A stretch of DNA of 64,000 nucleotides, from positions 32,001 through 96,000 of the forward strand of contig CAVTHO010000006.1 of assembly GCA_963734545.1 (NCBI GenBank), written 5' to 3'. The notes below the pieces were generated by a model. The model was not told where the DNA came from. It did no database searches and worked only from the letters and a program-made list of their open reading frames with translations. The position numbers and the translations under genes are program-made. The DNA is from an uncultured Spirochaetota bacterium (lineage in GTDB: Bacteria; Spirochaetota; Spirochaetia; SZUA-6; Fen-1364). Of this stretch, positions 1-31,755 are shown piece by piece. The first letter of the stretch is position 1. Every line of letters begins with the position of its first letter.

Positions 1-778
1 AGTGATAGGGGGTAGCGAAATAGCATTGCAAAGGAAAGTGTTGCTCGAGAACCTTGTAGTCATGGAACTCAGTTCCGTTGTCGAACGTGATTGTCTTGAA
101 CTTGGCTCTGTGCGCTGAGATTGCCTCTATGGCGGCTTGATTCACGGAAGCCGCCGTGCGAGAGCTCAGCTTCCGGATGATAGCGAATCCTGATTTTCGT
201 TCCACAAGGGTTAGGATGCAATTGTGAAGGTCCGTTCCTATTACAGTGTCACCCTCCCAGTGGCCCAGCTGCATCCTGGTTTCAACCTCGGGCGGACGCT
301 CCGAGATGTGGCGCTTGCCGGCCAGGATTCCTCGCGAATCCCTTGATCTGTAGCGTTTTCTGTGGGTCTTGGTAACGATTCGCAGGTGCTTGAAAAGCGT
401 GCCTCCATGCTTTTCGTCATCGTAGATGAACTGGTAGATGGTTTCGTGGCTAACGGTGAACGATCCGTTGCGACGTAAGGACCCAGAAATCTGTTCGGGG
501 CTGAAGTCCTGCTCGAGCAAAGCGATCACCTCTTGCCAGTAGCGGGGAGCCATGTGAAAGCCACGGCGGGACCGTTTTCGCCTGGTGGTAGCATAACTGT
601 GGGCAAGATCCGCACGGTACCAACCATCAACGATCTTCTTGTTACGAGCAATCTCGCGACTGATTGTGCTGGGGGAGCGCTGAAGAGCTCTGGCAATGGC
701 GGAAATGGTAGAGTGCCTATTGCGGAACTCGGTAATGGTGTAGCGTTCATCTTGAGAGAGTTGATGATATCTACGCAA
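1..778 (-). CDS. IS30-family transposase (runs off the left edge)
   Basis: Manual minus-strand translation from TTG at 778 (RBS AAGGGGA): LRRYHQLSQDERY..RSPSTISREIARN..SPEQISG..SHETIYQ..GHWEGDTVIG, all typical IS30 motifs. Confidence 0.93.
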   Translation of the reverse strand, partial: MRRYHQLSQDERYTITEFRNRHSTISAIARALQRSPSTISREIARNKKIVDGWYRADLAHSYATTRRKRSRRGFHMAPRYWQEVIALLEQDFSPEQISGSLRRNGSFTVSHETIYQFIYDDEKHGGTLFKHLRIVTKTHRKRYRSRDSRGILAGKRHISERPPEVETRMQLGHWEGDTVIGTDLHNCILTLVERKSGFAIIRKLSSRTAASVNQAAIEAISAHRAKFKTITFDNGTEFHDYKVLEQHFPLQCYFATPYH

Positions 779-855
779 GTATGGATCCCCTTTCTTGGCG
801 GAAAAGTGACACGTACCCAAGTAGCATCTCGACTCTCTCATTTGGTTTCCAGACC

Positions 856-880
856 CTTGCACTTACTTCTTGAATCCGCG
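856..880 (-). mobile_element. IS30 left terminal inverted repeat
   Basis: CGCGGATTCAAGAAGTAAGTGCAAG upstream of the transposase; near-identical copy at 14678-14702. Confidence 0.8.
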
Positions 881-882
881 AG

Positions 883-997
883 CCATAACAAATCGTTGCA
901 GTTGTCCCCTATGAGGCCGCCTGTAGCGGTGAATGCAGCTTGGCATTCCATAGAGTGTTGGGTTGATGCGGCGGGGCAACTGAACTCTATGTTAGAT
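883..997 (+). repeat. attC-type recombination site 1
   Basis: R'' CCATAAC; L'' GTTGCAGTTGTCCCC pairs with L' GGGGCAACTGAAC leaving two extra bases (G898, T905); R' GTTAGAT. Confidence 0.9.
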
Positions 998-1055: not shown

Positions 1056-1982
1056 ATGTCATATCTTGCTAGTCTTAGGATAAGAACGCCTTTTGCACAT
1101 TTGTCAGTGCTTGCGGCTCTTTGTCTGCTACTTTTGTTGCCGGCCAATACGTCTGCTCAAGAAGTCTCGAGGCAACTTGATGTGGTCTTCTGCAACCACG
1201 ACGGAACCGACCTCAGAGCGGATATCGCATTCCCAAGCGAACTACAAGGTACATACCCCGCTTTGATATTCATCTCTGGGAGTGGATGGGGTAATTGGTG
1301 GGGATATGGAATGGATAGACACCAATTTAACAGCGCTATCGTCACTGCGGCTGAACACGGATATGTCGCGGCGACTGTAGACTATCGGCCCACTTCAATC
1401 AAGGAAAATGGCAAAGCGAAATACCCGCATCCGGCCCAACTTGCGGACGTTCGAAGCGCCATTCGATGGCTACGGGCAAATGCAGCAAAGTATCACGTTG
1501 ATGCCAATCACATAGGAGCGATTGGATGGTCGTCAGGAGGCCATTTGTCACTTATGCTTGGACTCGCTGGCCCTGAACCGGACCAAAAGGAGACCGACAA
1601 TGCTTCTTTTTCCAGTCAAGTCCAAGCTGTTGTAAGTCTGGCGGGACCTACAGAACTTTCTCGCATGTATCATGAGGCTTCTTACCCGGGCATCTCCGAT
1701 GCCTTATCGGATCTTATGGGAGGAACACCAGAGCAAGTTCCTGCAAACTATAGAAAGGCAAGTCCGCTGTACTATGTGACACGCAACGCTCCGCCTATCC
1801 TAATAATCCAAGGCGATAATGATACCGAGGTCCCCTATGATCAAGCAACCCTCTTTGTAGAGGCAATGAAGAACTTAGGTGCTCCGGTCAGCATGGTCGT
1901 ACTAAAGGGATTTGGACATCTTAATGCTTATTATCACGAGGCTATTTTCCCTTTCTTCGATAAAGCGCTAAAAACTAGGTAG
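1056..1982 (+). CDS. Secreted alpha/beta hydrolase (BD-FAE/esterase-like), gene cassette
   Basis: Signal peptide, GWSSGG nucleophile elbow, QGDND and GFGH motifs; cassette ends GTTAGATG (991) and CATCTAAC (3352) are complementary. Confidence 0.88.
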   Translation: MSYLASLRIRTPFAHLSVLAALCLLLLLPANTSAQEVSRQLDVVFCNHDGTDLRADIAFPSELQGTYPALIFISGSGWGNWWGYGMDRHQFNSAIVTAAEHGYVAATVDYRPTSIKENGKAKYPHPAQLADVRSAIRWLRANAAKYHVDANHIGAIGWSSGGHLSLMLGLAGPEPDQKETDNASFSSQVQAVVSLAGPTELSRMYHEASYPGISDALSDLMGGTPEQVPANYRKASPLYYVTRNAPPILIIQGDNDTEVPYDQATLFVEAMKNLGAPVSMVVLKGFGHLNAYYHEAIFPFFDKALKTR

Positions 1983-1996
1983 AAACGACATCGAAC

Positions 1997-3344
1997 TGAA
2001 CCGTTCGGGGACATAGGTAACAAAGTCTTCTGGAGACATAGGTAACACTTATTCTGGGGACATGGGTAACACTCTTCTCGCAAGAGGAGGTGGTGGCCAT
2101 GCCGTGGAAAGGGGTTACCGTGAGCGAACAGAGAGCAAACTTCCTCCGAGACTACGCGCTGAAGTACTACAGCGTGACTGAGTTGGGGGAGATGTACAGT
2201 ATTTCCCGAAAGACCGCCTACAAGTGGATCGATCGCCACGAGGAATTAGGACGCAGCGGTCTGGAGGACCTGTCGCGACGTCCTCATAGTTGTCCTTGGC
2301 AGACACCAGGGTACATTGCCGAGGAACTGGTGAAGGTGCGGGAGAAGCATCCGTACTGGGGACCGAAGAAGCTGCTGGATATCATGGAGCGCAGGCACCG
2401 CAGGTGGCAGCTTCCTTCGGTGGCCACCGCGGCACATATTCTGGCCGAAAAAGGTCTGGTACGTGAGAGGCGCCGGCATCGGCGGGCTCACCCCGGATGT
2501 CCGAAGAGCGTTGCCGAGGGACCGAATGATATCTGGGGATCCGACTACAAGGGTCAGTTCCGAATGGGCAACGGGCAGTACTGCTTCCCCCAGACCGTCA
2601 GCGACCTGCATACGCGCTTCCTTCTGGGGTGCGACGGCCATCCGCAGGTATCCGCGGAGCTGACCAAGGTGCATTTTACAGGGCTTTTTCGCACCTTTGG
2701 GCTTCCCCGACGGATTCGCACCGACAACGGTGTTCCATTCGCGTCCAACGCGCTGGGTCGGTTGTCAGACTTGTCGGTGTGGTACATCAAGCTGGGCATA
2801 TATCCTGAGCTCATCGAGCCAGGTCGGCCGCAACAGAACGGGATCCATGAGCGAATGCATCGAACGCTGAAGCAAGGCACCACTCATCCGCCTGGCAGCA
2901 GTCTGAAAAGCCAACAGGAGAAGTTCGAGACCTTTCGGAAGGAATACAACGAGGACCGCCCTCACGAGGCGCTGCAAATGAAGAGGCCAGCGGAGGTGTA
3001 CCAACCCTCATCGCGGGAACTGCCTGAGCGAATCGAAACCTATGACTACCCCAATCAGTTCCTGGTGAGGCGCGTCAGCCGTTGCGGAACGATTCGAGTC
3101 TTTGGAAATCAAGCGTTTGTCAGTCAGACACTGAACGAGGACTTCGTGGGCCTGGAGGAAGTGGATGACGGCGTCTATGACATCTACTTTTGCTTCTACT
3201 TGATCGGGCGCTATGAATTGCGCACCAATACGATTCATGACATTATTAGCAAGGTGGCGGTGAGCGTCAGTAAGGCAGAGGGGCCATCGAGGGTGTCACC
3301 TATGTCTCCAGAATAAAGTGTTACCCATGTCCCTTGATTGTACA
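1997..3344 (+). mobile_element. IS481-family element inserted between cassette ORF and attC
   Basis: Ends TGAACCGTTCGGGGACATAGGTAACA and (rc) TGTACAATCAAGGGACATGGGTAACA, with repeated GACATRGGTAACA motifs; no clear target duplication. Confidence 0.88.
2099..3316 (+). CDS. IS481-family DDE transposase
   Basis: MPWK start, HTH, W-x-x-DYKG, RTDNGVPF, PQQNGIHERMHRTLK, RPHEAL. Confidence 0.93.
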   Translation: MPWKGVTVSEQRANFLRDYALKYYSVTELGEMYSISRKTAYKWIDRHEELGRSGLEDLSRRPHSCPWQTPGYIAEELVKVREKHPYWGPKKLLDIMERRHRRWQLPSVATAAHILAEKGLVRERRRHRRAHPGCPKSVAEGPNDIWGSDYKGQFRMGNGQYCFPQTVSDLHTRFLLGCDGHPQVSAELTKVHFTGLFRTFGLPRRIRTDNGVPFASNALGRLSDLSVWYIKLGIYPELIEPGRPQQNGIHERMHRTLKQGTTHPPGSSLKSQQEKFETFRKEYNEDRPHEALQMKRPAEVYQPSSRELPERIETYDYPNQFLVRRVSRCGTIRVFGNQAFVSQTLNEDFVGLEEVDDGVYDIYFCFYLIGRYELRTNTIHDIISKVAVSVSKAEGPSRVSPMSPE

Positions 3345-6954: not shown

Positions 6955-7150
6955 ATGAGTCGCGCAGAGATTAAGGGTAGATTTGACCAAGGAGTGGCCT
7001 CTCTCTGCAGCCAACGGGATCCAGTATGGCTTCCCGACCATATGCTTGCCTTGATTCCTCAATTGATCAGATCGCACAGCCAGAAGGACAGCGTAGTTCT
7101 TGACATCGGTGCGGGCACCGGGAATTTGTCGCGCTCGGTATATGGACGCT
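6955..7150 (+). pseudogene. SAM methyltransferase N-terminal fragment
   Basis: VLDIGAGTGNLS motif I, then truncated. Confidence 0.6.
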
Positions 7151-7345
7151 TTAAGGATCAGGGACCGCGCCAGAGGAGTGGCCATACATGAATGCTGCCC
7201 CACCGGCTTCATCAATCAGTGCCTCGATATCATCAATCTCCCGCTCAACCGCGCAAGGAAGGGTATGGCTGCTGTCGCCGCAGCCACGTCGGTCGTAGTT
7301 GAATACAGTAAACAACGGCGCAAGCCGTTCGATAGGCCTGGTCCG
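7151..7345 (-). pseudogene. Alpha/beta hydrolase fragment
   Basis: FTVFNYDRRGCGDS..EREIDDIEALI..YGHSSGA. Confidence 0.7.
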
Positions 7346-7489
7346 GATTAGGATAGCCTCGCGCGGAGCGCGCCGGTCACCAAGATGACCGCCGGTCCGG
7401 CACCCTCTGCTTGTCATAAGCAATCTTTGTTCCGTCTCGTGAAGATGGCAGGGTTCTCTTCACAGCCATACCAAAGGAGGGGTGACGAA

Positions 7490-7897
7490 ATGATCAGGTA
7501 TTCTATTGTGGGCATGGGGAGCGGCATTCTATTTGGCTTTATGGACGGCTTTATAAACGCCAATTCACTTGCTCAAAGGTTATACAGGGTCTTTGAACCC
7601 ATCGCCAGGAAGTCAATAAACATACCGGCAGGATTCGCTATTGACATCGTCTACGGTTTCGCCATGGCGGGGATCTTTCTTCTGCTTCGCTCAAGCTTGC
7701 CATTCGAATCTGGGGTACTAAAGGGATTGGTTTTTGGATTGTTAGTATGGTTTTTCCGGGTGGCAATGCAGGTGGCCACGCAGTGGGTGATGTTCAACAT
7801 CCCTATAGGCACACTAATATATGCCTTGGTCTGCGGATTGGGCGAAACGCTTGTACTTGGATTGCTTTACGGCCTCACCTTGAAGCCTTCTGCCTGA
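7490..7897 (+). CDS. Small four-TM membrane protein
   Basis: RBS AGGAGG; hydrophobic segments; KGLVFGLLVWFFRV. Confidence 0.75.
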   Translation: MIRYSIVGMGSGILFGFMDGFINANSLAQRLYRVFEPIARKSINIPAGFAIDIVYGFAMAGIFLLLRSSLPFESGVLKGLVFGLLVWFFRVAMQVATQWVMFNIPIGTLIYALVCGLGETLVLGLLYGLTLKPSA

Positions 7898-8137
7898 ATT
7901 AGGCGATTCCCCCTAATGCTTCGTCTGCACCTGCATGCTCGAGCGTCGATATCGGATTCATTTGTTTCGCGTTCCCCCCGGCAGATGGAATACACTTTGA
8001 CCTTTGCCGCCACATCAGAGGGGGATAGCCGCGGCTTTAAGCCCTCGCGGGATTCGGCAGTAGATCTCCGCGATGAATATTAATACATTGAAGCAGTCTG
8101 CAGATAGGCGAAATGTTGACGAATACAAGGAGGCAAT

Positions 8138-8425
8138 ATGCCAGAATACCTTTTCGATGGAAAGAAACTGAAGAAGCGCTCTGGACAAAAGGAAGGAGAA
8201 CTTGACGGGAATCAGGTTAAGGCCTGGAACGGTGAGAAAGTGGGTGAAATTGAAGGCAAGAACGTTAAGGATTCTCAGGGCAAGAAAGTTCTGGAATTTG
8301 ATGGAAAAAACATTAAGGATGACAAAGGAAAGAAAATAGCGACTCTCGAAGAAGTACGGAAAATAGTCGAAGGGGAGGCTGGAATCTCCCTGGTCGCAAT
8401 GTGGTATTTTTTTGTGTGGAAATAG
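8138..8425 (+). CDS. Small repetitive beta-rich hypothetical protein, cassette
   Basis: RBS AAGGAGG; repeated (D/E)GKxxKDxxGKK units; attC half-site 15 bp after the stop. Confidence 0.75.
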   Translation: MPEYLFDGKKLKKRSGQKEGELDGNQVKAWNGEKVGEIEGKNVKDSQGKKVLEFDGKNIKDDKGKKIATLEEVRKIVEGEAGISLVAMWYFFVWK

Positions 8426-9382: not shown

Positions 9383-9419
9383 GACTCAGCGGGTGCGCGG
9401 ATTCCCTTGAGGCGGACCT

Positions 9420-9523
9420 TAACGAATCCACCGCCGGAGGCGGCTGATTTGAGCCAGGCCAGAAGAGGCCTGGTTTTTCGCGCTCCTTCTCTTAGAACCG
9501 CTCCTTTTCTTCCTGGTATTGCA
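9420..9523 (-). mobile_element. IS200/IS605 right-end remnant
   Basis: Encodes a QYQEEKERF TnpA tail plus hairpins; ~100-bp homologue at 10345-10450. Confidence 0.65.
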
Positions 9524-9578
9524 CGTTCGGAACCCCAAACTAGTGGACAGCAACCCTTAGATTCACGGGTCTACTACA

Positions 9579-10088
9579 CTATTTCGAACTCAGCTTTGGC
9601 CTAGTTCTATAGAACGTGATCAAGTCTGTCCCAATCGGCTTCGATCCAATCTGACGCAATAACGTGATGATCTGTCCCCGATGATAGGAGGAATGATTGA
9701 CCAAATGTTGCATCTGTTGGAATAGAGGCTCTGATTGTCGGTTCCCTTTGAGATCGCCGTAAGAGAAGGAGTCGTTGAGCTTGCGTTCATCGAGGTTTCC
9801 TAGATAGCTATCCAGGTCGGCTTGGTACTTCTTCCACTGACTTTTCAAAGATTCAAGGTTGGGTATCTCATTCGCAGTGACGGACGCCGATGGGGAGCTG
9901 CCATTCCATCGTTGAAGCCAGATCATGTTTGATCCGTAAATGTGCACGAGAGTTCCATGGATTCCGCCATGGCTGGATGTCAAGTCCGCAAGGTACTTCC
10001 GCTCCGGAACAGAAGAAACCGTTTCTAGAATCCGATCGATTGCCCATGCATCGTACTCGAACAAGGCGAAAATTTCTTGCAGCATCAT
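9579..10088 (-). CDS. DinB/YfiT family protein, cassette
   Basis: TLVHI..WLQRW..HLVNHSSYHRGQI. Confidence 0.9.
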   Translation of the reverse strand: MMLQEIFALFEYDAWAIDRILETVSSVPERKYLADLTSSHGGIHGTLVHIYGSNMIWLQRWNGSSPSASVTANEIPNLESLKSQWKKYQADLDSYLGNLDERKLNDSFSYGDLKGNRQSEPLFQQMQHLVNHSSYHRGQIITLLRQIGSKPIGTDLITFYRTRPKLSSK

Positions 10089-10305
10089 ATCATAAATCTG
10101 CTGACGCAACTCCAAAGGGTCAATAGGCAAATAATGGAGTCCGGCCGGGCTGGGCCATGGACAGAGACTTCTGGGTCTGGGATTGAATGCCAAAAACGCC
10201 GTGAGTTGCATGCCGACCAGATCTTCTGAGGGTGCTGTACATTGCGCGGATCGCCGCACTTCTGATCGAAGGAAGCTTATCCCACCGAAATTGAATCTAG
10301 ACCCT

Positions 10306-10345
10306 GCATAACATAGAGTTCAGTTTCGCCGCCGACAAGAGCTTA
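10306..10345 (-). repeat. attC 3' half-site (minus strand), interrupted by IS200
   Basis: rc CGGCGGCGAAACTGAACTCTATGTTATGC. Confidence 0.8.
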
Positions 10346-10500
10346 AAGAATCCACCGCCAGAGGAGGTGGACTTGAGCCAGGCCTCTAGAAGAGGCCTGG
10401 CTCTTTGCGCTCTTTCTCTTCGAACCGCTCCTTTTCTTCCTGGTATCGCATGTAACGCCATCTCTTTTTCTCGTCCCAGCCCTACGGTCGTTACGCTTTT
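10345..10500 (-). mobile_element. IS200-type TnpA C-terminus and right end
   Basis: SVTTVGL..RYMRYQEEKERFEEKERKEPGLF* followed by hairpins AGCCAGGCCTCT/AGAGGCCTGGCT and TCCACC/GGTGGA. Confidence 0.7.
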
Positions 10501-10662
10501 GCCGCGGCTCATTCCGAAGTGTGAAGGAACTGACTGCCAAGATCGACCAGTTCGTGTCGACCTACAACAAAAAGGCAAAGGCGTTCACCTGGGTCGCTAC
10601 CGCTGAATCGATCCAGCAAAAGTCGAGCGCTTAAGTCAGCAAATTTCTGGGACAGCACACTA
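10501..10662 (+). mobile_element. IS630-family 3' remnant inserted at the TA of an attC R'' box
   Basis: RGSFRSVKEL..FTWVATAESI..ISGTAH* ends in TAG; the flank TAGATGGCC is the inverted complement of the cassette start at 11450-11458. Confidence 0.8.
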
Positions 10663-10768
10663 GATGGCCACTCCTTTACCGCCTATCATCGCGCAACGGA
10701 TTCCAAATGGCCTTTAAAGGTATCCTTTGGCGAGCGTCGCAATCACCATTGTTTGTGTTTCAAATACG

Positions 10769-11377
10769 CTAATCTACTTTAACAAATTGAAATCCAAATC
10801 GTTGTCCAATTTCGCTTCTAGACTTCGTATCCATTAGATTGCGGTACCCCAGGCCTGGTACGTTGTACGGTAGCGCAAACAAGTTCCAAATCTCTGCCTG
10901 TCTATCATCCGCCGATGCATACTTTCCCTCTAGGACGGTCCTTAGTTTTGAAACATCTGCGCTCGGAAACGTGCTTTCAATGTCTTCCAGCCCCTGGATC
11001 GAAGAAGACTTTCCTGCCCCAGGGGACGAATCATATTCAAATACCTTCTCTCCATATGCGTAGGCTGCTATCGACAGCTCTTTGCTATCATGGTTGAGCA
11101 CATAAACAGCAATGGATTCTAAGCTTTTTGAAAGCCTCTTTGCCAGGTTCCTACCATAAACATCGTCCTGGCTGTCCATTGTCTTTTCGCAGATGACAGC
11201 CGCGTCAGGCTTCCCTAGGACAACAATCGCTGTGAGACCCATGTCCTTGGCTGCGTCAACGACAGCGTCGGGATTTGTGCCCACAATGGTTATGTTCGCA
11301 TAGAACGACCCCGCCCATGAAAGCACCGGCAACAACGCCAACCCAGCGGCCACCAACAGAACTAGTCGCAGTTTCAA
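10769..11377 (-). CDS. Exported hypothetical protein, cassette
   Basis: TTG start with AAGGAG RBS, signal peptide, GSFYANITI and LNHDS motifs; bounded by matched cassette ends. Confidence 0.75.
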   Translation of the reverse strand: MKLRLVLLVAAGLALLPVLSWAGSFYANITIVGTNPDAVVDAAKDMGLTAIVVLGKPDAAVICEKTMDSQDDVYGRNLAKRLSKSLESIAVYVLNHDSKELSIAAYAYGEKVFEYDSSPGAGKSSSIQGLEDIESTFPSADVSKLRTVLEGKYASADDRQAEIWNLFALPYNVPGLGYRNLMDTKSRSEIGQRFGFQFVKVD

Positions 11378-11453
11378 GGCGCTCGCTCCTTTCACTAAAG
11401 GAGCGAGCAGTATAATACATTTCCTGATGCAATGCACCAGCATATAGCGGGCC

Positions 11454-11565
11454 ATCTATCATAGAGTTGAGCTGTGCCGCCGAATAAGACTTGTAGTAGC
11501 GTAGCGGATAAGCCCCTTCAAACCAAACTGCACCCACGGCGACAGTTCCAACGATTTTGCTAGAG
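11454..11565 (-). repeat. attC-type site, variant (R'' CTCTAGC, R' GATAGAT)
   Basis: rc CTCTAGCAAAATCGTTGGAACTGTCGCCG...CGGCGGCACAGCTCAACTCTATGATAGAT. Confidence 0.82.
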
Positions 11566-11583
11566 CGTTCCCACCATGCGTTT

Positions 11584-12450
11584 CACTGAGCTTTTTTCTT
11601 CAGGTACTTGTCGAAAAAGGGCACTACCTGAGGGTGACTCGGGCATTCAGGTGCCCCATCGACGGCACCATGATCGACGTGTGGTTCGCACCAACTTCCT
11701 TCATCTTCTTGTCAAGCAGCTCTGCCTGCGACGGATAACCGTTCTCCCCCATGATGCCAAGCACAGGTGGGCTACCGCGACGAACATACGTGACTGCGCT
11801 CACGATGCGGTACTTCTCTGGCACTGCAGAAGGAGAGCCTCCAAGGAGTCCTTCAAGCACTTCGTGTACTTCTTCTAGCTCGTCATACGCTTTCTCTATG
11901 TCTGCGGCTGCTCCAATAGCGACGACCGCCTGCACGTCGCAGCGATATTCTCCGTTCTTGACGTCCCCGTCCGAGTTGTCCTGTTGCTTTGCAAGTCCAG
12001 CTAAAAGAGCCAACCGGCCTCCCGATGACCGGCCAATTAGGCCTATCTTCTGTGGATCAATGCCATACCGGTCTGCGCAAGCCCGTACCCATCGTGTTGC
12101 GTTCTTCACGTCATAGATCTGCGCAGGAAATTGGAACTTGGTCCTATTTCCATCCTTGATGCCTATTGGGACTGTAGTCTATTGAGATCGCAACGTATCC
12201 GCTTTCGGCAGTGTCCTTGATTGCGCAGGAGAATTGGCGGCGATCAAGCTGTGGTCCCCACAACTTGCCACATATGTTGCCTTGGGAGATCACTGCCGGC
12301 TGTTTCTCATGCTGGTCGGCTAGCCTGGCTACGTCAAGCCTCAGATTTAGCCCGTTTCAGCTGTAATAGACAATGTCCTTCTCGAAGGAGACTTTCTACG
12401 CCCGGAGCGGTACCCAGGGGCCAGCATCAACTATGTGCCTAGATAAGAGT
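11584..12450 (-). pseudogene. Degraded BD-FAE-like esterase, paralogue of 1056-1982
   Basis: LDRRQF..GYVAISIDY..FPAQIYDVKNA..IGRSSGG..PFFDKYLK with internal stops and frameshifts. Confidence 0.8.
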
Positions 12451-12632
12451 ACCATCGACTTCTGCCAAGCCCACGCATTTTCACGCACTCCTCTCTCTTT
12501 GCCGTAGAGACAGCAGCCGCCTAACCTCTTGTCATTCCTATGGACAGGGAGCAAACCCACTCCCGAATAGGCCCAATGGGCCATAGCGGCGCACGATGAG
12601 GTTGCTGTGCTCCCCTGACAATTCCCCAAACG

Positions 12633-12745
12633 CTCTAGCATAGAGTTAAGTTGCCCCGCATCAGCACAGAACTGCATCGAATTCCCAGACTGCACCGATC
12701 GTTCCAGGCGACCTCTTAGGGGACAACTGCAACGATTTGTCGGGC
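12633..12745 (-). repeat. attC-type site directly upstream of the recombinase (R'' GCCCGAC, R' GCTAGAG)
   Basis: rc GACAAATCGTTGCAGTTGTCCCC...GCGGGGCAACTTAACTCTATGCTAGAG; same family as site 1. Confidence 0.85.
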
Positions 12746-12812
12746 TGCTCTTTCCCTTTGTTTCTTTATGTTATCTTGTACCATCACCATTGACACTTAG
12801 GGGGACACAGCC

Positions 12813-13700
12813 ATGGGAACTTTGCGGGACTCAATGCGAACTGCAATGGAAATACGAGGTTATTCCAAAAGGACCGTGGAAATCTACCTGTCCTGTGTAC
12901 GGGTCTTTGCGAATCACTTTAAACGGTCTCCTTTGCTGATCTCCGCGAAGGAGGTAGAGTCCTTTTTCCACTTCCTCCGTCAACAGCATAAGAGCGATTC
13001 GACGATCCATCTCTACTACTTTTCATTAAGGCTCTTCTACCACATTAACAATATCAGCGACCGGCTACCGAGGTTTGCCTTTAGGAGAATACAGAATAAA
13101 GTTCCCATGATCTTGAGTCAAGAGAAAGTGGTGACAATACTAAGTAGCTGTAAAAGCCTCAAATTTAGAACGCTCTTCTCTTTGGCTTATGCTTCCGGAC
13201 TGCGGACCTCGGAACTACGAGACCTAACTGTGCGCGACATCGACTTTGACAGGAAGCAGGTATACGTCAGAAACGGAAAGTGTGGACGCAACCGATACTC
13301 AATCCTCGGGAACAGGATCATGCAACTACTACATACCTATATGAATGTGTACAGGCCGCACTCCTTTCTTTTCTACAATCGGGAGGACGGTACCACCAGA
13401 GTTGGCAAAGATGCAATCAGAAGAGAACTGAAGAAGCTTTTAGTCAAGAACGGAATAGATGCCCATGAGGTGCATCTGCACACGTTGAGACACTGCTTTG
13501 CTACGCACCTAATGGAAAACGGCACCAGCATATTTTACATTATGCACCTGCTTGGTCACGCAAGTATCTACACCACGATGGTGTACCTTCACATGCAGGA
13601 CCTGGAGAAACTGAACATTACGTCGCCAATCGACATACTTGAGCTGCGCCCGAATGAGGACACCGAACCTCAGAAAGAGCTATTCGGGGAAACCGCTTGA
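12813..13700 (+). CDS. Tyrosine recombinase with N-terminal SAM-like domain, lacking the IntI-specific insertion
   Basis: Catalytic set intact: SGLR, RNGK, HTLRH, LLGH, TTMVY; N-terminus RGYSKRTVEIY; only a short segment between the K and HxxR motifs. Confidence 0.92.
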   Translation: MGTLRDSMRTAMEIRGYSKRTVEIYLSCVRVFANHFKRSPLLISAKEVESFFHFLRQQHKSDSTIHLYYFSLRLFYHINNISDRLPRFAFRRIQNKVPMILSQEKVVTILSSCKSLKFRTLFSLAYASGLRTSELRDLTVRDIDFDRKQVYVRNGKCGRNRYSILGNRIMQLLHTYMNVYRPHSFLFYNREDGTTRVGKDAIRRELKKLLVKNGIDAHEVHLHTLRHCFATHLMENGTSIFYIMHLLGHASIYTTMVYLHMQDLEKLNITSPIDILELRPNEDTEPQKELFGETA

Positions 13701-13799
13701 AGTGGACCACAGCATAGGGCAAGACTCCGAGGAAGTCGGCCCAACATAGATGTCTCATCACTTCGCGATATTGCTTTTTCTCAGCAACCTTCCATTTCT

Positions 13800-14366
13800 T
13801 CAACTAAATTCCTTTAGCAATTCATTCGTTTTTCTCAGGTCGAAGGTTTCTGAATCAAACTTCGGACCAATGAATTCCCGTATTTCTTGATATCGTTTGT
13901 GTCTAGGGTTGTCGTAGATCTTTACTTTCTCCATGTACTCTCGCGAGCCGCCACTATCTTCAACTGGACCATGCCGAAAACCTTCAATGCATTCCGTCGA
14001 TTGTTTTTGCTGAAAACCATCATTCTTTGGTTCGTTGCAGAGCTCGATCTCCCAACGGTCACCAAAATCATATTCATACGTAATAACTGCTACGTCTTCT
14101 GCAAATATGTTGGAGAGTTTTGTGCGAATCGAACTTTGCCTTCCTATGTCCGCATCATGTTCACTAGGAGGAAAATACCGCTTTTTGTCAATCACAAACG
14201 CATAAAGATGATTGTCTCTCCATCCCATTAGTACTTGGAGGATCGCGTGCAACCTTTCAAGTGTAATGTCTGATGACACCAGCAGTTTTCTCCAGATCTC
14301 GGGCTTTACGTCCTTCACTGAAACTCTGAACTGCAGAGTTCGTGACTGAGTTCTATTTTGCTTCAT
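13800..14366 (-). CDS. Plasmid pRiA4b ORF-3 family protein
   Basis: PEIWRKLLV..LHAILQVLMGW..HLYAF..YEYDFGDRW..GPVEDSGG. Confidence 0.9.
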   Translation of the reverse strand: MKQNRTQSRTLQFRVSVKDVKPEIWRKLLVSSDITLERLHAILQVLMGWRDNHLYAFVIDKKRYFPPSEHDADIGRQSSIRTKLSNIFAEDVAVITYEYDFGDRWEIELCNEPKNDGFQQKQSTECIEGFRHGPVEDSGGSREYMEKVKIYDNPRHKRYQEIREFIGPKFDSETFDLRKTNELLKEFS

Positions 14367-14559
14367 TCAATTCCTTCTTGATGCAACTAATGTAACCATA
14401 AACGGTTCACTTGCATACATGAGTCGATCCGCACGTAATTCGGGCAAAGAGTTGCAAGACTCTCTATGCCGTGCATCTATGGAGTATGCAGGCCAGGATC
14501 CCCGTCTCGCCCTCCCGCCATGGAAAACTCACGCTACGTCACGCGGCAAAATTTCAGAT

Positions 14560-14675
14560 TTCTTATGAGAGGTTCAGTTGCCCCGCCATATCAGGCCAGA
14601 ATTGCGTGGAATTGCCGGGCTGCACCTGCCGATCCAAGCGGCCGCATAAGGGACAACTGCAACGATCTGTTATGG
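14560..14675 (-). repeat. attC-type site with degenerate R'
   Basis: rc CCATAACAGATCGTTGCAGTTGTCCC...GGCGGGGCAACTGAACCTCTCATAAG. Confidence 0.82.
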
Positions 14676-14677
14676 CT

Positions 14678-14835
14678 CGCGGATTCAAGAAGTAAGTGCA
14701 ACACTCCTCTGGTCAATAAATGAGAGAGTTGCGATGCTATTACGGTACGCCTCCATTTTCCGCCAAGAAAGGGGATTCATACTTGCGTAGCTACACTCAA
14801 CTCTCTCAAGACGAACGGTACCACATCATCGAGCT
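14678..14835 (+). mobile_element. IS30 left-end remnant (diverged second copy)
   Basis: Same IR and RBS as the first copy; TTG 14783 LRSYTQLSQDERY then truncated. Confidence 0.85.
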
Positions 14836-15129
14836 GGGAAGCAATCATTGCCTTACAGAACCGGCCGGTTGACCGTTGTCTTATCCTTTTCTTAAGCAAT
14901 AGCCCGCCGGGTGTAGTTTTCAATATCTCGAGTTCTATGTATGACCAATCTAGGCAGCAGAAGTCTCCGACTGCAAGAGCGAAATTCTTCGATGAAAAAG
15001 GATGTAGCTGAGGTGGACCTTAAAGCCAAGACAACGTCCTGGCGATCCGTTGATTGCTCAAGCAGCAGCCTCTATGCGACCTTTTGGGTAGACAGTACCC
15101 GGTGTTCGCCCACCAAGTGACTGATGACG

Positions 15130-16760: not shown

Positions 16761-17828
16761 ATGAAAAAGGAAATGGAAATGACAAACTGGAGGGTCTGCC
16801 TTAAAGCAGACGCAACCGCCTGGCTACTGGAAAAGAGCAATCCATCAGTTCGGTACCTCACATTGACCAATCTCCTGGACAGGGAGAAAACGAACCCTGA
16901 AGCGAAGCGTGCAAAAGAAGAGATCATGCTGTCGGGTGTCGTACCGAAGATACTCAAAAGGCAAGAAGCGGGAAGCTGGAATAGTCCTGGTCGATTCTAT
17001 GTGGACAAGTACAAGGGGACAGTCTGGCAACTAATCATACTTGCAGAACATGAGGCAGATGGTAACAGCAGACAAGTAAGGGATGCCTGCGAATACATAT
17101 TGCGCTGCTCGCAGGATCCGGATAGCTACGGATTTGCCTATCATCAAAGAGGCGGTAATGACGGCGGTCGACATGGTGAAGTAGTTCCCTGCCTCACGGG
17201 AAACATGATCTGGAGTTTGATCAAATTGGGCTACCTAAATGACGAACGTGTAAGCAAAGGAATAGAGTGGATCGCCAAGTATCAGCGGTTCGATGATGGG
17301 GCCGACACTCATCCAGAAGGCTGGCCGTACGACAGGTATGAAATGTGCTGGGGAAACCACAGTTGTCATATGGGTGTAGTAAAGGCGCTTAAAGCTCTTT
17401 CTGTGGTCCCGAAAGAACAAAGAAGCAGGAACGTCAGTGCAGCCATCGAACGAGGTTGCGACTATCTCCTGGCGCATCGCATCTACAAGCAAAGCCATAA
17501 CTTGTCGAAGACAGCAAAGCCCGGCTGGCTCAGATTACAGTTCCCGCTGATGTATCAAACGGACATTCTGGAAAATGCCTTGGTCCTTCTCGACTTGGGA
17601 ATTAAGGACACGCGCATGCAGGAAGCAATTGACAAGATCAGTTCGAAGCAGAATAGCGATGGAAAGTGGAACCTGGAAGGAACATTCAACGGCAGATTCC
17701 AGGTGGACATCGAGGTGAAGGGCAAGCCGAGCAAATGGATAACATACAGAGCACTGCGCGTCCTTAAGAAGTACAACGAAATGAACGGCGGCGCAGTTCG
17801 ACTCCAGGCTGACATGACTCTGAGCTAG
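16761..17828 (+). CDS. Prenyltransferase/squalene-cyclase-repeat alpha-barrel protein
   Basis: WLLE..PSVRY, YQRFDDG, KQNSDGKW QW-like repeats, PSKWIT. Confidence 0.75.
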   Translation: MKKEMEMTNWRVCLKADATAWLLEKSNPSVRYLTLTNLLDREKTNPEAKRAKEEIMLSGVVPKILKRQEAGSWNSPGRFYVDKYKGTVWQLIILAEHEADGNSRQVRDACEYILRCSQDPDSYGFAYHQRGGNDGGRHGEVVPCLTGNMIWSLIKLGYLNDERVSKGIEWIAKYQRFDDGADTHPEGWPYDRYEMCWGNHSCHMGVVKALKALSVVPKEQRSRNVSAAIERGCDYLLAHRIYKQSHNLSKTAKPGWLRLQFPLMYQTDILENALVLLDLGIKDTRMQEAIDKISSKQNSDGKWNLEGTFNGRFQVDIEVKGKPSKWITYRALRVLKKYNEMNGGAVRLQADMTLS

Positions 17829-17843
17829 GTGGGTATTGAAACG

Positions 17844-18758
17844 ATGCAAACAAATGACATCAGCCGATGGCAGCATTCGCACGACTTTGGCACCGACTCT
17901 CCTGCTGCCGAAAGGCGAACTTGGGTAGTTGTCACGATCACGACATCAATGATGCTCGTCGAGCTTGTTGGTGGATGGCTTTTTGGCTCAATGGCGGTTG
18001 TTGCAGACGGCTGGCACATGAGCACGCATGCGGCGGCCTTGGGTTTGGCAGGAATAGCCTTTGCATATTCTAGACGTGCGGCAAAAGACACGCGATTTGC
18101 ATTTGGACCTTGGAAGATCGAAGCTCTCGGCGGATACACGAGCGCCCTGCTACTTGTGGGAGTGGCTTTGTACATGGCATGGCAGTCGATTCAACGACTC
18201 TACCAGCCACTGCAAATACAATATGGGCAAGCGCTCATAATCGCCATAGTCGGCCTTGCAATCAATGTTGTATGTGCATTTATACTTCGAGGGCATGAAA
18301 GTCATGTCCACTCCGCAGGTCATGCCCATGGTCCAGTAGACTTGAACACCAAAGCAGCGTATCTGCATGTGATGGCAGATGCATTGACTTCAGTCCTCGC
18401 TATTATTGCCTTGCTGGCAGGCATGTACTTTCAGATCAGGATACTTGACCCACTAATGGGCTTCGTTGGCGGATGCCTCATTACGGCTTGGGCAATCGGA
18501 TTAATCAGAGATTCGAGTCAGGTTCTCTTGGATCGCGAAATGAACCATGAGATTGTTGCCAGAATCAAAACGCTGATCGAAGCAGATGGTGACTCAAGAA
18601 TTTGTGATATGCACTTATGGAGAATCGGCAAAATGAAGTTTGCCTGTGCTTTGGCAGTTGTTTGTTCGAATGGACTGCGTGCCGCAGACTACCGTGAGAG
18701 ACTTAGGGAGCTTCAGGAACTTGCGCATTTGACAATCGAAGTCAATCAGAATGGATGA
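17844..18758 (+). CDS. dmeF: CDF-family Co/Ni/Zn efflux transporter (DmeF-like)
   Basis: ADGWHMSTH, His-rich loop, AAYLHVMADALTS, HLTIEV. Confidence 0.85.
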   Translation: MQTNDISRWQHSHDFGTDSPAAERRTWVVVTITTSMMLVELVGGWLFGSMAVVADGWHMSTHAAALGLAGIAFAYSRRAAKDTRFAFGPWKIEALGGYTSALLLVGVALYMAWQSIQRLYQPLQIQYGQALIIAIVGLAINVVCAFILRGHESHVHSAGHAHGPVDLNTKAAYLHVMADALTSVLAIIALLAGMYFQIRILDPLMGFVGGCLITAWAIGLIRDSSQVLLDREMNHEIVARIKTLIEADGDSRICDMHLWRIGKMKFACALAVVCSNGLRAADYRERLRELQELAHLTIEVNQNG

Positions 18759-19912: not shown

Positions 19913-20479
19913 ATGCGAAACAGACTGACAAAGGCATATTCTACTGTCGGATGTTGTGGAATAGATTGTGGACTCTGTCCAAGATATCACACCGAAGGAA
20001 AGTCAAGGTGCCCTGGTTGCGCTGGCAAGGACTTCTTTGAAAAGCACCCCTCGTGTTCTATTGTCACTTGCTGCTTCATAACCAGGAAATTGGAGACATG
20101 TGGCAACTGTGAAAGATTCATCTGTGAGAGAATCAAGAATTGGGACAGTGCTGATTCTTTTGTCACGCACCGCACCTGCATCTCCAATCTTGAAAACATA
20201 AAGGAAAATGGATTGGCCGTAGTCATCAGGCAGAAGGAGCAGCGACTGAAATTGCTGTACGATTTACTTAGAGACTATGATGACGGTCGGTCGAAAAGCT
20301 TCTACTGCCTGTCGGCAGCATTGCTTCCGATTGACGAACTTAAAAAGGCAATTGCAGAGATCGGAGACCCCGAAGAAAAATCAAACGACAGAACGCAGGT
20401 AGCGAAGCGGCTCAAGGAGGCGTTCCTGGCAATCGCCAATAGAATTGATGTCGAACTGTCATATCGGAGGAAGACATAA
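19913..20479 (+). CDS. DUF3795-like Cys-rich protein, cassette
   Basis: CCGIDCGLCP..CPGC..CSIVTCC..CGNC; the stop codon overlaps an attC R''. Confidence 0.8.
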   Translation: MRNRLTKAYSTVGCCGIDCGLCPRYHTEGKSRCPGCAGKDFFEKHPSCSIVTCCFITRKLETCGNCERFICERIKNWDSADSFVTHRTCISNLENIKENGLAVVIRQKEQRLKLLYDLLRDYDDGRSKSFYCLSAALLPIDELKKAIAEIGDPEEKSNDRTQVAKRLKEAFLAIANRIDVELSYRRKT

Positions 20480-20502
20480 CAGATTGTTGCAGTCGTTCCC
20501 CC
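20474..20502 (+). repeat. attC 5' half-site
   Basis: ACATAACAGATTGTTGCAGTCGTTCCCC versus family CCATAACAAATCGTTGCAGTTGTCCCC. Confidence 0.7.
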
Positions 20503-20565
20503 AGCAATTGCTGCCAGAGCTTTCCTCGCTTGACGAGAATACTGTCACTTCCTATCTTGTAGCAA

Positions 20566-21102
20566 GTGACCCCGCTGCAGCCATGGTTTGAACGACAATT
20601 CACGTTCGATCTCCCCTCGTCGCGCTTTCCGAATATCATAGAGAGACTCCGTGGGAGCCCGGCTCGCGTTGAAGAACGCGTTCGGTCTCTTTCGCCCGCT
20701 ACTCTCGTCGCCCGCTTCCGCGACGGGTGGTCGATTCAGGAAAACGTCGGCCACCTCTGTGACTTGGAGCCCCTCTGGATTCGTCGTGCCGAGCAGCTGC
20801 TGGAGGGGCATGGCGAACTCGCCGTCGCCGACTTGACAAATAGGGGCACGGACGAAGCGAACCATAACGCTACTCCGCTCGATGATCTGCTGAAGCGCTT
20901 TCGCGACCTACGGCTTCAGTTGATCATAATTCTGGATAGTGCGAACGGGTTGGCGCTCGAACGTACTGCGCGCCATCCGCGGCTAGGGACGCATATGCGT
21001 CTGATCGACATAGCGTTCTTCACCGCGGAGCATGACGATCATCATCTCGCAAGGATCACGGAGCTGCTGCAGTTGGGGGCGTCAAACCGTTCGCCCTCCT
21101 AG
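20566..21102 (+). CDS. DinB family protein
   Basis: WSIQENVGHL..HPRL..AEHDDHHL. Confidence 0.88.
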   Translation: MTPLQPWFERQFTFDLPSSRFPNIIERLRGSPARVEERVRSLSPATLVARFRDGWSIQENVGHLCDLEPLWIRRAEQLLEGHGELAVADLTNRGTDEANHNATPLDDLLKRFRDLRLQLIIILDSANGLALERTARHPRLGTHMRLIDIAFFTAEHDDHHLARITELLQLGASNRSPS

Positions 21103-30299: not shown

Positions 30300-30737
30300 A
30301 TGAAAGCCTTGGTGGTTTTTGACTCAACCTGGGGCAACACAGAGAAAATAGCGCACGCTGTTGCATCAGGAATTGGGGGAGGCACGAAAGCGCATCGGGT
30401 CGGCGCCATCGATGCAAAGCGATTTGAGGCCATAGATCTTCTCGTGGTGGGATCACCAATACTCGGGGGGCGGCCTTCTCCTGCCATTCAGGGATATATC
30501 AATTCCATTCCCGAGGCGGCTGCCAAGAAATTGCGCGTTGCGACCTTCGACACCCGGCTGATGATGAGATTCGCAAAGATATTTGGATACGCCGCAGTAC
30601 GGATGGCAGATCAACTGAAAGACAAGGGATGTACGCTGAGATCGACGGAAGGATTTTTCGTGAAAGGTCGCAGCGGTCCGCTGGCTGACGGAGAATTGGC
30701 TCGCGCAAGTGAATGGGGCAGCAAGCTAAGGTCCTGA
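30300..30737 (+). CDS. Flavodoxin family protein
   Basis: DSTWGNTEKIA..VGSP..FDTR. Confidence 0.88.
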   Translation: MKALVVFDSTWGNTEKIAHAVASGIGGGTKAHRVGAIDAKRFEAIDLLVVGSPILGGRPSPAIQGYINSIPEAAAKKLRVATFDTRLMMRFAKIFGYAAVRMADQLKDKGCTLRSTEGFFVKGRSGPLADGELARASEWGSKLRS

Positions 30738-30869
30738 TCGGCTGCATCCAACTCCTTTCCCGGCTATTCTCAGGGACCGGAAGCTTCGAAGACACCGCGA
30801 CGGTTATTGGCTTCGGGATTGGAGTGGACACCTGGGCGAGTCTTGTGCGTGACCTGACGGATGCGGTAC

Positions 30870-31100
30870 TGGCGCGCTAGGGATTATCGACATGAAGGCC
30901 TACGAGGCCGCTCTCTTTTTCGCTCAGCGATCCTAATTCGTTCTCTTGCAGTTTTGTTCAAGAGCTGCTCCGCCACGCGGATCGCCGATGTGTTGAGCCC
31001 GGCGCTCCTCTTGCCGATGTTCCGCAAGGCCCCGCTCACCGCCTTCTTGACATAGTTCCTCTCATCGGCTGCTCCCGCAATGATGTGGGGGTAGAGATCA
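30870..31100 (-). pseudogene. DNA alkylation repair (AlkD-like) fragment
   Basis: rc gives AADERNYVKKAVS, then LRNIGKR..LN after a frame change. Confidence 0.55.
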
Positions 31101-31250
31101 GGTGCTTATATGAATTCCCGCACGGACATGTGCGAAGTGAAATTTAATATAGTAGACATCGAAGTCGGCGTGAATTGCGGAGTATGACGATGAGTGAGAG
31201 TTGCATTGCGCGAAGCGTCGGATATACTTCTATTCGAGGAGAAGCGAGAA

Positions 31251-31682
31251 ATGCTGATGGAAATCTCCAGTCTCATCACTCCTGAAGTCTATGAAGTGAT
31301 ATACCGAATGGGGCATATGGACGAACTGGTAATAGCAGACGCGAACTACTGCGCGTCTGCGTTGAGCGGCAAGGTGGTATTCTGCTATGCGCAGGAGAAC
31401 CATGCACTATTGGCTGAAATCCTGAAATACTTTCCGCTGGACGACGATGAAGAGTTTCCCATCAACGTTATGACCCCCGACCATGGATACATCCACGAGC
31501 CACAGATCTGGAACGATTACCAGAATGTTCTCGCCCGTACGTATGATTCAAGGAAGCTGCAGCTCAACAAGATCTCGCGGCAGGAATTCTATCTGAGAAC
31601 CAGGAATGCATACGCCACGATACAAACGTCGGACCCCCGGCTTTATGCGGACATCATACTCAAGAAAGGCGTGGTGCTGTGA
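31251..31682 (+). CDS. RbsD/FucU mutarotase family
   Basis: MGHMDELVIADANY..FY..YADIILKKGV. Confidence 0.9.
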   Translation: MLMEISSLITPEVYEVIYRMGHMDELVIADANYCASALSGKVVFCYAQENHALLAEILKYFPLDDDEEFPINVMTPDHGYIHEPQIWNDYQNVLARTYDSRKLQLNKISRQEFYLRTRNAYATIQTSDPRLYADIILKKGVVL

Positions 31683-31755
31683 TCGAGAAGGGGATGTACG
31701 TCGCTTCCGGCAGCTTGCCTGGCATGTGCCGCCGCGCAGACGCGCTGCCTGCATA

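Follow-up and report, generated by a model that had tools for sequence, protein, structure and literature searches.

IS30-family insertion sequences that probably target the cassette-side edge of integron attC sites

A 64,000-nucleotide stretch of DNA from an uncultured Spirochaetota bacterium (GTDB lineage Bacteria; Spirochaetota; Spirochaetia; SZUA-6; Fen-1364) contains two junctions at which an IS30-family insertion sequence (IS) abuts the attC site of an integron cassette. The whole stretch, called the window, comprises positions 32,001 to 96,000 of contig CAVTHO010000006.1 (C6) in assembly GCA_963734545.1, a metagenome-assembled genome (MAG) of 5.14 Mb in 10 contigs designated G000 (window, G000:C6:32001-96000). 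Coordinates refer to the window unless a contig is named. The IS30 copies of the genome are designated A to F, and R1 is a covariance model built from the attC sites of this genome. The two junctions are composed of the following features.

1..880 (in-window part), minus strand: IS30 copy A; the whole element, about 1089 bp, spans G000:C6:31792-32880
857..880, plus strand: left inverted repeat (IRL) of copy A, 24 bp; its partner, the right inverted repeat (IRR), lies upstream of the window at C6:31792-31815
881..883, plus strand: target-site duplication AGC of copy A; the other half is at C6:31789-31791, just outside the IRR
883..997, plus strand: attC of the cassette carrying copy A; R'' CCATAAC at 883-889, R' GTTAGAT at 991-997; R1 133.5 bits over 879-1000
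14557..14677, minus strand: attC adjoining copy E, with the same AGC-CATAACA junction; R1 103.1 bits, R' end degraded
14678..14850, plus strand: IS30 copy E, a 5' fragment of about 175 bp with an IRL (14678-14701) and the first ~43 codons; third IS30 lineage of the genome
15061..15243, minus strand: DDE transposase remnant, a C-terminal rve_3/rve_2 piece; Pfam rve_3 41.3 bits, rve_2 34.1 bits

Copy A has the organization of an IS30-family element. Its sole open reading frame (ORF) runs leftwards from position 841 and encodes a transposase of 340 residues, which scores 303.7 bits against NCBIfam NF033563 (IS30; cut-off 80) and 51.6 and 36.4 bits against the Pfam domains HTH_38 and rve. Members of the IS30 family have a single ORF, a length of about 1–1.25 kb and terminal inverted repeats of 20–30 bp. 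Copy A agrees with these features in ORF, length and inverted repeats, and it shows the short target-site duplication of the family, here of 3 bp. The element ends were set by comparing copies A, B, and C. The IRR starts CCTGAGTTCAAG, the IRL ends CTTGAATCCGCG, and the two repeats have the inner blocks AAGTGCAA and TTCAAG in common. By eye, no convincing −35/−10 pair of an outward promoter is seen at the IRL.

The first-pass annotation had singled out a 34-bp sequence common to both junctions. This 34-mer occurs exactly twice in the window, at 857-890 on the plus strand and at 14668-14701 on the minus strand, with 0 mismatches; two matches were found in 0 of 100 dinucleotide shuffles. It is built from the 24-bp IRL (857-880), the triplet AGC (881-883), and CATAACA, the start of the attC. 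The sequences on either side have diverged, as had been described. Copy E matches residues 1–43 of the transposase at 70% identity in a tblastn search, and the interior nucleotide identity between A and E is ~79% over 150 aligned positions, an approximate value with start offsets at least one base off. The attC centres of the two copies differ, with 81% column identity over the whole alignment, and the R' region of the second attC reads CTCTCATAAG rather than TCTATGTTAG. In each of the two copies the transposase points away from the attC, as had been noted, and taking CCATAAC, a 7-mer, as R'' makes the reported distance of 2 bp between IS and R'' correct. The stretch after the truncated copy E is decayed, and the frames near the DDE remnant are broken.

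The 34-bp identity is the sum of a conserved IRL, a conserved R'' start, and a shared 3-bp flank. The IRL sequence is the same in copies A, B, C, and E (24/24 between A and E; 21/24, by eye, in D and F). The function of the IRL and of the R'' start explains the exact IRL identity of A and E and their shared AGC-CA only partly. The AGC-CA flank may derive from related cassettes or from conversion between copies; related cassettes are a possible source because the same GAGCCATAAC also occurs at a third attC.

The attC sites belong to an integron array. An nhmmer profile made from the first attC gives 39 matches genome-wide, with 29 on C6, five at the end of C9, two at the start of C5, and three on C3. 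An integron integrase gene, intI, lies at C5:2875-3807 (TIGR02249, 403.9 bits; cut-off 265) beside the two C5 attC sites at the contig end, and we infer that it is tied to the array of C6, though the contigs are unjoined. When folded, the attC sites pair their R boxes over 5 bp (TAACA/TGTTA) and then leave 4 nt unpaired as a spacer; the L box that follows has two bases without a partner, both on the R''-L'' arm, and the L'' arm of the site at 883–997 carries the two. A 21-site alignment of the array is ~81% alike, and compensatory changes are visible across it. These sites display the hallmarks of attC, namely an imperfect palindrome, a pair of R'' (RYYYAAC) and R' (GTTRRRY) boxes, L''/L' boxes with unpaired bases on one arm only, and a variable centre, and they lie in an array of co-oriented cassettes in a genome with an integron integrase. 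R1 detects six attC-like places in the whole window (seven rows, the seventh being the first site on the opposite strand). Generic attC finders, based on an arm-pair count or an arm alignment score, failed to tell attC from background, with overlapping controls and four matches in a shuffled sequence. The attC calls rest on nhmmer, the covariance model, and the reading of folds.

In a tblastn search, IS30 sequences turn up at six places of the 5.14-Mb genome and nowhere outside the attC array. Random flanks, which the first-pass annotation had named as the mark of one old insertion later duplicated, are thus absent from this genome. The six places represent three lineages, A/B/C, D/F (62–66% amino acid identity), and E. 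The proteins of A, B, and C are identical, that of D is 64.5% identical to them, that of F on C9 is ~61–63% identical and interrupted, and E is a fragment. Each of the six IRLs is turned towards the R'' box of an attC, and the distance from the IS end to TAAC is exactly 5 nt in five of them and 6 nt in D. The full-length attC model matches after copies A, B, C, and D. The cassette bodies upstream of the IRRs are unrelated to one another. The triplets that flank the full-length copies are listed below.

Copy A: AGC at the IRR, AGC at the IRL; perfect 3-bp repeat
Copy C: ATG at the IRR, ATG at the IRL; perfect 3-bp repeat
Copy F: CCA at the IRR, CCA at the IRL; perfect 3-bp repeat
Copy B: CAA at the IRR, GGT at the IRL; no repeat
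Copy D: AGA at the IRR, CGC at the IRL; no repeat

The right end of copy A, retrieved upstream of the window, therefore carries the duplication that had been anticipated, but its size is 3 bp (AGC) and not the 2 bp suggested. An uninterrupted site, GAAGGGAGC followed directly by CATAAC, is present at a paralogous junction (C6:2219-2233).

A second genome displays the same arrangement. Among 40 relatives searched for the element, only one matched, a MAG (G023) from another genus of the same family. It contains nine copies of a 1086-bp element within 60 kb and on one strand, with identical or near-identical transposases that are 67% identical to that of copy A; the interior of copy E is ~79–83% identical (an approximate range) to A, D, and this element. 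The IRL is followed by NNN-NN-TAAC in 9/9 copies, and a full-length attC model match starts right at the IS end at all nine loci. Seven of the nine copies have perfect duplications, all different (AAA, CCG, CAA, CCA, AGA, GGG, and CTG). The previous attC lies 276–1241 bp upstream of the IRR at 9/9 loci, and a cassette body likewise precedes copies B, C, and D. The intervening cassette body in G023 places the IS at the 3' end of ordinary cassettes, rather than making it a cassette by itself.

Both junctions in the window were most probably left by insertion sequences of an IS30-family clade that targets attC, with elements about 1.09 kb long and inverted repeats of 24–26 bp. As read from the junctions, the insertion point, in duplex DNA, is the cassette-side edge of the attC, where 3 bp lying 2 bp upstream of the R'' TAAC core are duplicated. 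The left end of the element, the 5' end of the transposase, always faces the attC, so that the transposase is antisense to the cassettes, and the attC is left whole by the insertion. Of the two explanations that the first-pass annotation had offered, the attC-targeting subgroup is supported by copies that differ in their 3-bp duplications, cassette bodies, and attC sites, yet share one nucleotide position and one orientation. The other, an IS30 that travels as a cassette, is contradicted, in the sense of a cassette by itself, by the inverted repeats, the target duplications, and the cassette body of 276–1241 bp between the previous attC and the IS.

The latter explanation can be widened to an IS30 that forms a gene cassette together with its attC and is moved by the integron integrase, not by transposition. 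The attC after each IS is full length, R'' and R' are never separated by the IS, and cassette exchange could help explain the presence of the clade in arrays of three phyla. This explanation is very unlikely, as the IS is not the sole content between attC sites at the nine G023 loci or at B, C, and D, the 3-bp duplications flank the IS itself, and clade members with perfect duplications also occupy dispersed non-attC sites (14/15 in Ca. Endobugula, described below).

The junctions could also descend from one old insertion that was copied along with its attC when cassettes were duplicated or were shuffled by the integrase. The AGC flank and the CA before TAAC shared by A and E, the ~81% likeness of attC sites within the array, a cassette body duplicated between C9 and C6 at 99.5% identity, and the lack of duplications at B and D would be in keeping with common descent. 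The duplications are distinct, both here (AGC, ATG, and CCA) and in G023 (seven different), which contradicts it. The upstream cassette bodies are also unrelated, the attC centres differ, and nine identical copies occupy nine different sites in G023. Taken with the recurrence of the same position in sequence-unrelated attC families of other phyla, these observations make common descent highly improbable.

The pattern seen in the window is far more general than the window itself. A pattern-plus-tblastn scan of one genome per species covered the best 80 of 556 relatives and yielded 78 loci. The next relatives, at ~50% identity, occur in Gammaproteobacteria and in Rubritalea (Verrucomicrobiota), with IRL GCCGAATTCATA and IRR CCTAGTATCAAG. 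With Ca. Endobugula excluded, GTTA-NN-NNN is present at the exact offset in 20/28 IRL flanks, and perfect 3-bp duplications are present in 14 of 26. Canonical attC hairpins ending in GTTRRRY were read at 12 loci, including those in Alcanivorax hongdengensis (L035), Reinekea (L058), Microbulbifer harenosus (L070), Halioglobus (L034), Saccharospirillum (L055/57/59), a Xanthomonadaceae MAG (L066), and Rubritalea (L049). The reverse orientation, with TAAC beside the IRR, was found at 1 of 47 loci.

Vibrio relatives were reached by tblastn of plasmid records. The 15 matches on a 2.06-Mb replicon of V. campbellii form two clusters, apart from one isolated place, and TTTGTTA-NN-NNN of a Vibrio-type attC abuts 9 of the 13 readable IRLs. 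Such a Vibrio attC edge is also occupied by a copy on a plasmid, the product of which is annotated as 'IS30-like element ISVa6 family transposase'. Metagenome contigs were scanned with a degenerate IRL pattern, which returned 125 stretches, 80 of which made loci with 75 unique flanks. TAAC occurs at the exact offset in 31/75 flanks, against a chance of 1 in 256 per site; five have another base before AAC, and 39 have neither. Metagenome flanks without attC are concentrated in particular IRL variants, and this half probably includes related IS30 lineages that have a similar IRL and lack the habit.

The attC-associated elements group together in a tree of 60 transposases, built by a quick IQ-TREE search with Shimodaira–Hasegawa-like approximate likelihood ratio test (SH-aLRT) support only; near-duplicate G023 and Endobugula loci and the truncated matches L073 and L084 were left out of the trees. 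All 24 rows labelled with TAAC fall in one 43-row clade (branch length 0.75, SH-aLRT 100), composed of five rows from Spirochaetota, three from Rubritalea, and 35 from Gammaproteobacteria. Seven rows with no TAAC are nested among the tips of this clade. In the sister group of 17 rows, TAAC is present in none of the 12 labelled rows. ISVa6 is placed inside the gammaproteobacterial part of the clade (support 95). The attC-targeting subgroup is thus further backed by G023, Gammaproteobacteria, Verrucomicrobiota, and metagenomes, and it corresponds to one transposase clade.

The relatives also bear on the idea that insertion is random and that only copies at the harmless boundary between gene and attC survive selection. 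Arrays are mostly silent and tolerate insertions, and other IS families accumulate there (PMC11089894, PMC11023631). The positional precision contradicts this idea, since selection cannot fix one nucleotide and one orientation in nine identical, recent G023 copies. The equally harmless mirror position at R' is unused by all six copies here and by all nine in G023, and elsewhere such use amounts to the 1 of 47 loci noted above. Selection on random insertions is barely conceivable as the cause.

One member of the clade departs from attC. A Ca. Endobugula MAG (loci L036–L046, L050, L071, and L080) contains at least 15 near-identical clade copies on a 2.36-Mb contig and a second contig, which provide a natural control and data set for a relaxed target motif. 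Fifteen dispersed copies have perfect duplications in 14/15 cases and lie at TAAC in only 2/15. Their flanks match TAACAAG at positions +6 to +12 with a mean of 4.47/7, against 2.03 at control offsets, a value reached by 0/36 controls. A second signal is GAC at +24 to +26, the occurrence of which is as follows.

Endobugula flanks: 6/15
Other non-TAAC flanks: 3/8
G023 targets: 9/9
Gammaproteobacterial and Rubritalea attC targets: 10/20; 16/20 within one or two bases
Metagenome attC-type flanks: 15/32; 21/32 as G[AT]C
This genome (G000): 0/6; GTC in 5/6
Control offsets: 0–0.016

When the two attC arms are compared, the middle base of this G-N-C triplet coincides with the second of the two bases left unpaired on the R''-L'' arm. 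TAACA likewise opens the reverse complement of the R'-L' arm, which at the G-N-C distance has CCC, CGC, or CCG in 21/21 sites of G000; in G023 it has GCC in 7/9 and CTG and GCT in the other two. An R'' core combined with G-N-C 14 nt further in would be compatible with target and off-target sites alike, with the arm that is used, and with there being one orientation. The off-attC signals, being in register, suggest a readout of duplex sequence. A different candidate, that the target mimics the element's own end, was rejected, as in-register matches to the IRL and IRR are no higher than at offsets −6 to +6 in four lineages.

Targeting may instead be real and act through the folded attC, as a single-stranded hairpin or an extruded cruciform, or through guidance by the integrase, rather than through a duplex motif. 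The sequence after TAAC varies widely among targeted attC sites (TAACCC, TAACTT, TAACTG, and others), TAACA alone is far too frequent in 5 Mb to explain 15/15 attC insertions in two Spirochaetota genomes, and the second half-site falls on a base that is unpaired only in the folded form. Against this, both signals, the TAACAAG-like one and GAC, persist in register at Endobugula sites that lack an attC hairpin (e.g., L071 and L040). Duplex DNA is the target of IS30-family DDE enzymes, as described for IS30 (PMC9333248). Recognition of the folded site, or guidance by the integrase, is rather unlikely.

Under direct readout of the duplex, the transposase would read a bipartite motif on the R''-L'' arm, with TAAC(A/AAG) at +6 to +12 and G-N-C, mostly GAC, at +24 to +26. 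The N of G-N-C would be the base left unpaired when the attC folds, which is present in the R''-L'' arm only. Since the R'-L' arm lacks this base, the mirror arm would have the wrong spacing, which would account for both the arm choice and the single orientation. Such targeting would parallel the behaviour of IS30, which is reported to insert at defined hot-spot sequences and to form orientation-specific junctions (PMC9333248), and the N-terminal helix-helix-turn-helix (H-HTH) of which is needed for target binding (as cited in PMC1525189).

Movement is presumably copy-out-paste-in via a junction of the inverted repeats, as for IS30. No IRR-IRL joint, circle junction, or empty site is present in the contigs of four public runs, which are of low depth and give no evidence either way; one IS contig from these runs starts exactly at the IRR tip. 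After insertion, the IS would become part of a cassette. The attC being intact, the integrase could in principle move the cassette together with its IS, and an IS riding along inside a cassette is possible. Repeated copies would supply homology for deletions and inversions of the array.

Several observations weigh against attC targeting by this clade, or limit what can be drawn from the counts. First, TAAC is missing at the offset in 8/28 non-Endobugula, 13/15 Endobugula, 4/13 V. campbellii, and 39/75 metagenome flanks. Second, the bipartite motif carries little information; no more than about half of the attC targets have an exact GAC, and the triplet is GTC in this genome. Third, perfect duplications are lacking in 2/5 full-length copies here (B and D) and in 2/9 in G023, and copy D is offset by one base. 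Recombination between copies would yield B, D, and the two G023 copies without duplications. Fourth, an empty site of the same cassette was not obtained from the genome itself, 24 genomes of the family, or the four public runs. A blastn search of the upstream flanks against their own genome gives a single paralogue, which carries an IS481-like element instead. Searched as DNA against the 24 family genomes, the flank of C has no match and that of B has three distant homologues, one with the IS (G023) and two without a recognizable attC after it. Finally, since attC sites within an array are related, not every event counted is independent of the others; both Spirochaetota genomes are also metagenome-assembled, and assembly can misjoin array repeats.

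The IS481-like element belongs to a second lineage that lies beside attC sites. Further features of the array are listed here.

1997..3344, plus strand: IS481-like element with a 408-aa transposase (Pfam rve/rve_3/HTH); 67% identity to a 408-aa protein scored with NF033577
3349..3470, plus strand: attC after the IS481-like element; R1 121 bits
4144..5470, plus strand: second IS481-like element in the window; of the genome's seven copies, only this one has no attC beside its right end
G000:C6:870-2227, 7039-8387, 16885-18241, and 30435-31783, and C9:346563-347915: other IS481-like copies
11451..11569, minus strand: attC in an inverted block; R1 45.5 bits
12630..12749, minus strand: attC in the inverted block; R1 101.9 bits

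The IS481-like 408-aa protein scores 217.6 bits against NF033577, just under the cut-off of 224. The right end of the element at 1997–3344, ...TTGTACA, is located 9 nt upstream of TCTAAC of the next attC. In 6/7 copies of this genome, a spacer of 9 nt (10 in one copy) separates the right end, TGTACA or TGTACC, from NNTAAC. The same docking is found in 4/4 complete copies of G017 and G021 (loci L227, L232, L228, and L233); relatives at 40% identity lack it. Target duplications are less clear, with 3-bp matches in only about three of nine junctions. One cassette body occurs twice at 99.5% identity, at C9:351095-351494, where IS30 copy F follows, and at C6:478-869, where an IS481-like element follows. 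Copies of a single cassette have thus received two different ISs at their 3' ends.

Part of the array is inverted. In the block from ~9400 to 14860, the attC sites at 11451–11569, 12630–12749, and 14557–14677 are on the minus strand. The GC skew changes sign between 10 and 16 kb and is reversed in the block. The right edge of the block (~9.4–14.7 kb) is formed by the truncated copy E; a remnant of IS30 was not detected at its left edge. IS-mediated inversion in a chromosomal integron has been demonstrated experimentally with IS3 copies in V. cholerae (PMC11023631). The block also contains a gene for a tyrosine recombinase of 295 aa (12813–13700, plus strand), which is opposite to its neighbours. 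The protein scores 121.5 bits against Phage_integrase and 89 bits, below cut-off, on the integron-integrase model.

The first ~38 kb of the window consists of small units, mostly single-gene, with a G+C content of 47–57%, against 59–65% beyond. Two BD-FAE/alpha-beta-hydrolase genes are present in the array, a whole one at 1056–1982 (plus strand, 308 aa) and a shorter one in the inverted block at 11624–12109 (minus strand, 161 aa), and they may be duplicated cassettes. The region from 15000 to 38000 contains low-GC, cassette-like single genes for DinB, methyltransferases, GNAT, DJ-1/PfpI, LysE, and cation efflux proteins, among others. Its intergenic attC sites, diverged or decayed beyond 15 kb, are missed by the model made from the first part of the array, and one diverged site is visible at ~20476–20610.

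A broader proposal joins these strands, and we put it forward tentatively, with slightly less belief than doubt. The whole IS30 clade, in Spirochaetota, Verrucomicrobiota, and Gammaproteobacteria and including ISVa6, would recognize attC by protein, with the R'' core and the position of the extrahelical base telling the arms apart. The IS481-like lineage would have converged on a position 9 nt upstream of the same box. With the attC left intact, both would ride with cassettes through integrase-mediated exchange, which would explain their spread across phyla and would drive inversion and deletion of arrays.

To our knowledge, only two lineages of mobile elements are known to seek out attC, the RNA-guided IS1111-type elements and the group IIC introns, and no RNA guide is known for the IS30 family. 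The IS1111-attC group (ISPst6, ISKpn4, and ISPa21) occupies a specific location at one end of the cassette attC (PMC11187229; cited in PMC3971601 and PMC11089894), and the IS30 clade resembles it in the choice of attC end. The two differ in machinery. IS1111-attC elements have subterminal repeats and a DEDD transposase guided by an element-encoded seekRNA (PMC11187229), whereas the IS30 clade has a DDE transposase, terminal inverted repeats, and a 3-bp duplication, and its target choice looks like a protein–DNA interaction. Copy A falls outside the IS1111-attC group, its transposase being an IS30-type DDE enzyme and not a DEDD enzyme. Group IIC-attC introns such as S.ma.I2 are a monophyletic, attC-specific subset of a larger family of mobile elements and lie between gene and attC, opposite to cassette transcription (PMC3001079). 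They share place and polarity with the IS30 clade, but they are retroelements with a ribozyme and a reverse transcriptase and insert into the bottom strand, whereas the IS30 clade makes target duplications. The only ORF of the element described here encodes an IS30 transposase and no reverse transcriptase, and the element apparently lacks an intron RNA, which sets it apart from these introns.

IS30 of E. coli and IS1655 belong to the same transposase family as the element described here. IS30 is described as using nearly palindromic hot spots or its own inverted repeats as targets, making short duplications, and moving by copy-out-paste-in (PMC9333248). Its duplication is 2 bp and its hot spots are not attC; the element here duplicates 3 bp at the R''-L'' arm of attC. 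ISVa6, an IS30-family element of Vibrio anguillarum, is named in PMC4572688, the available text of which says nothing on its target choice. It belongs to the same clade, and the V. campbellii copies assigned to the 'ISVa6 family' are those at TTTGTTA-NN-NNN beside Vibrio attC; the copy of ISVa6 on pJM1 has no left end. By the usual ISfinder threshold, two elements are called the same IS only if transposase and ends are nearly identical. ISVa6 is ~50–57% identical to the elements here and has different inverted-repeat sequences, which makes them different elements of one clade.

The first-pass annotation knew of no attC targeting by IS30, and full-text searches of the literature returned no report of it for IS30-family elements. 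In their available text, integron papers of recent years name no group other than IS1111 as attC-targeting (PMC11089894, 10.1101/2025.06.18.660453, and PMC3971601).

If the interpretation is true, a DDE clade with single-nucleotide precision would represent a third, mechanistically different route to attC, and it would offer a simple protein–DNA system for asymmetric target reading by a transposase. Such elements mark, interrupt, and rearrange arrays, as seen in the inverted block at a truncated copy and in the copies without duplications, and they may travel with cassettes. They would also inflate the counts of "transposase" cassettes in surveys. The junction IRL-NNN-NN-TAAC could serve to tag attC sites and arrays in taxa where attC models do poorly.

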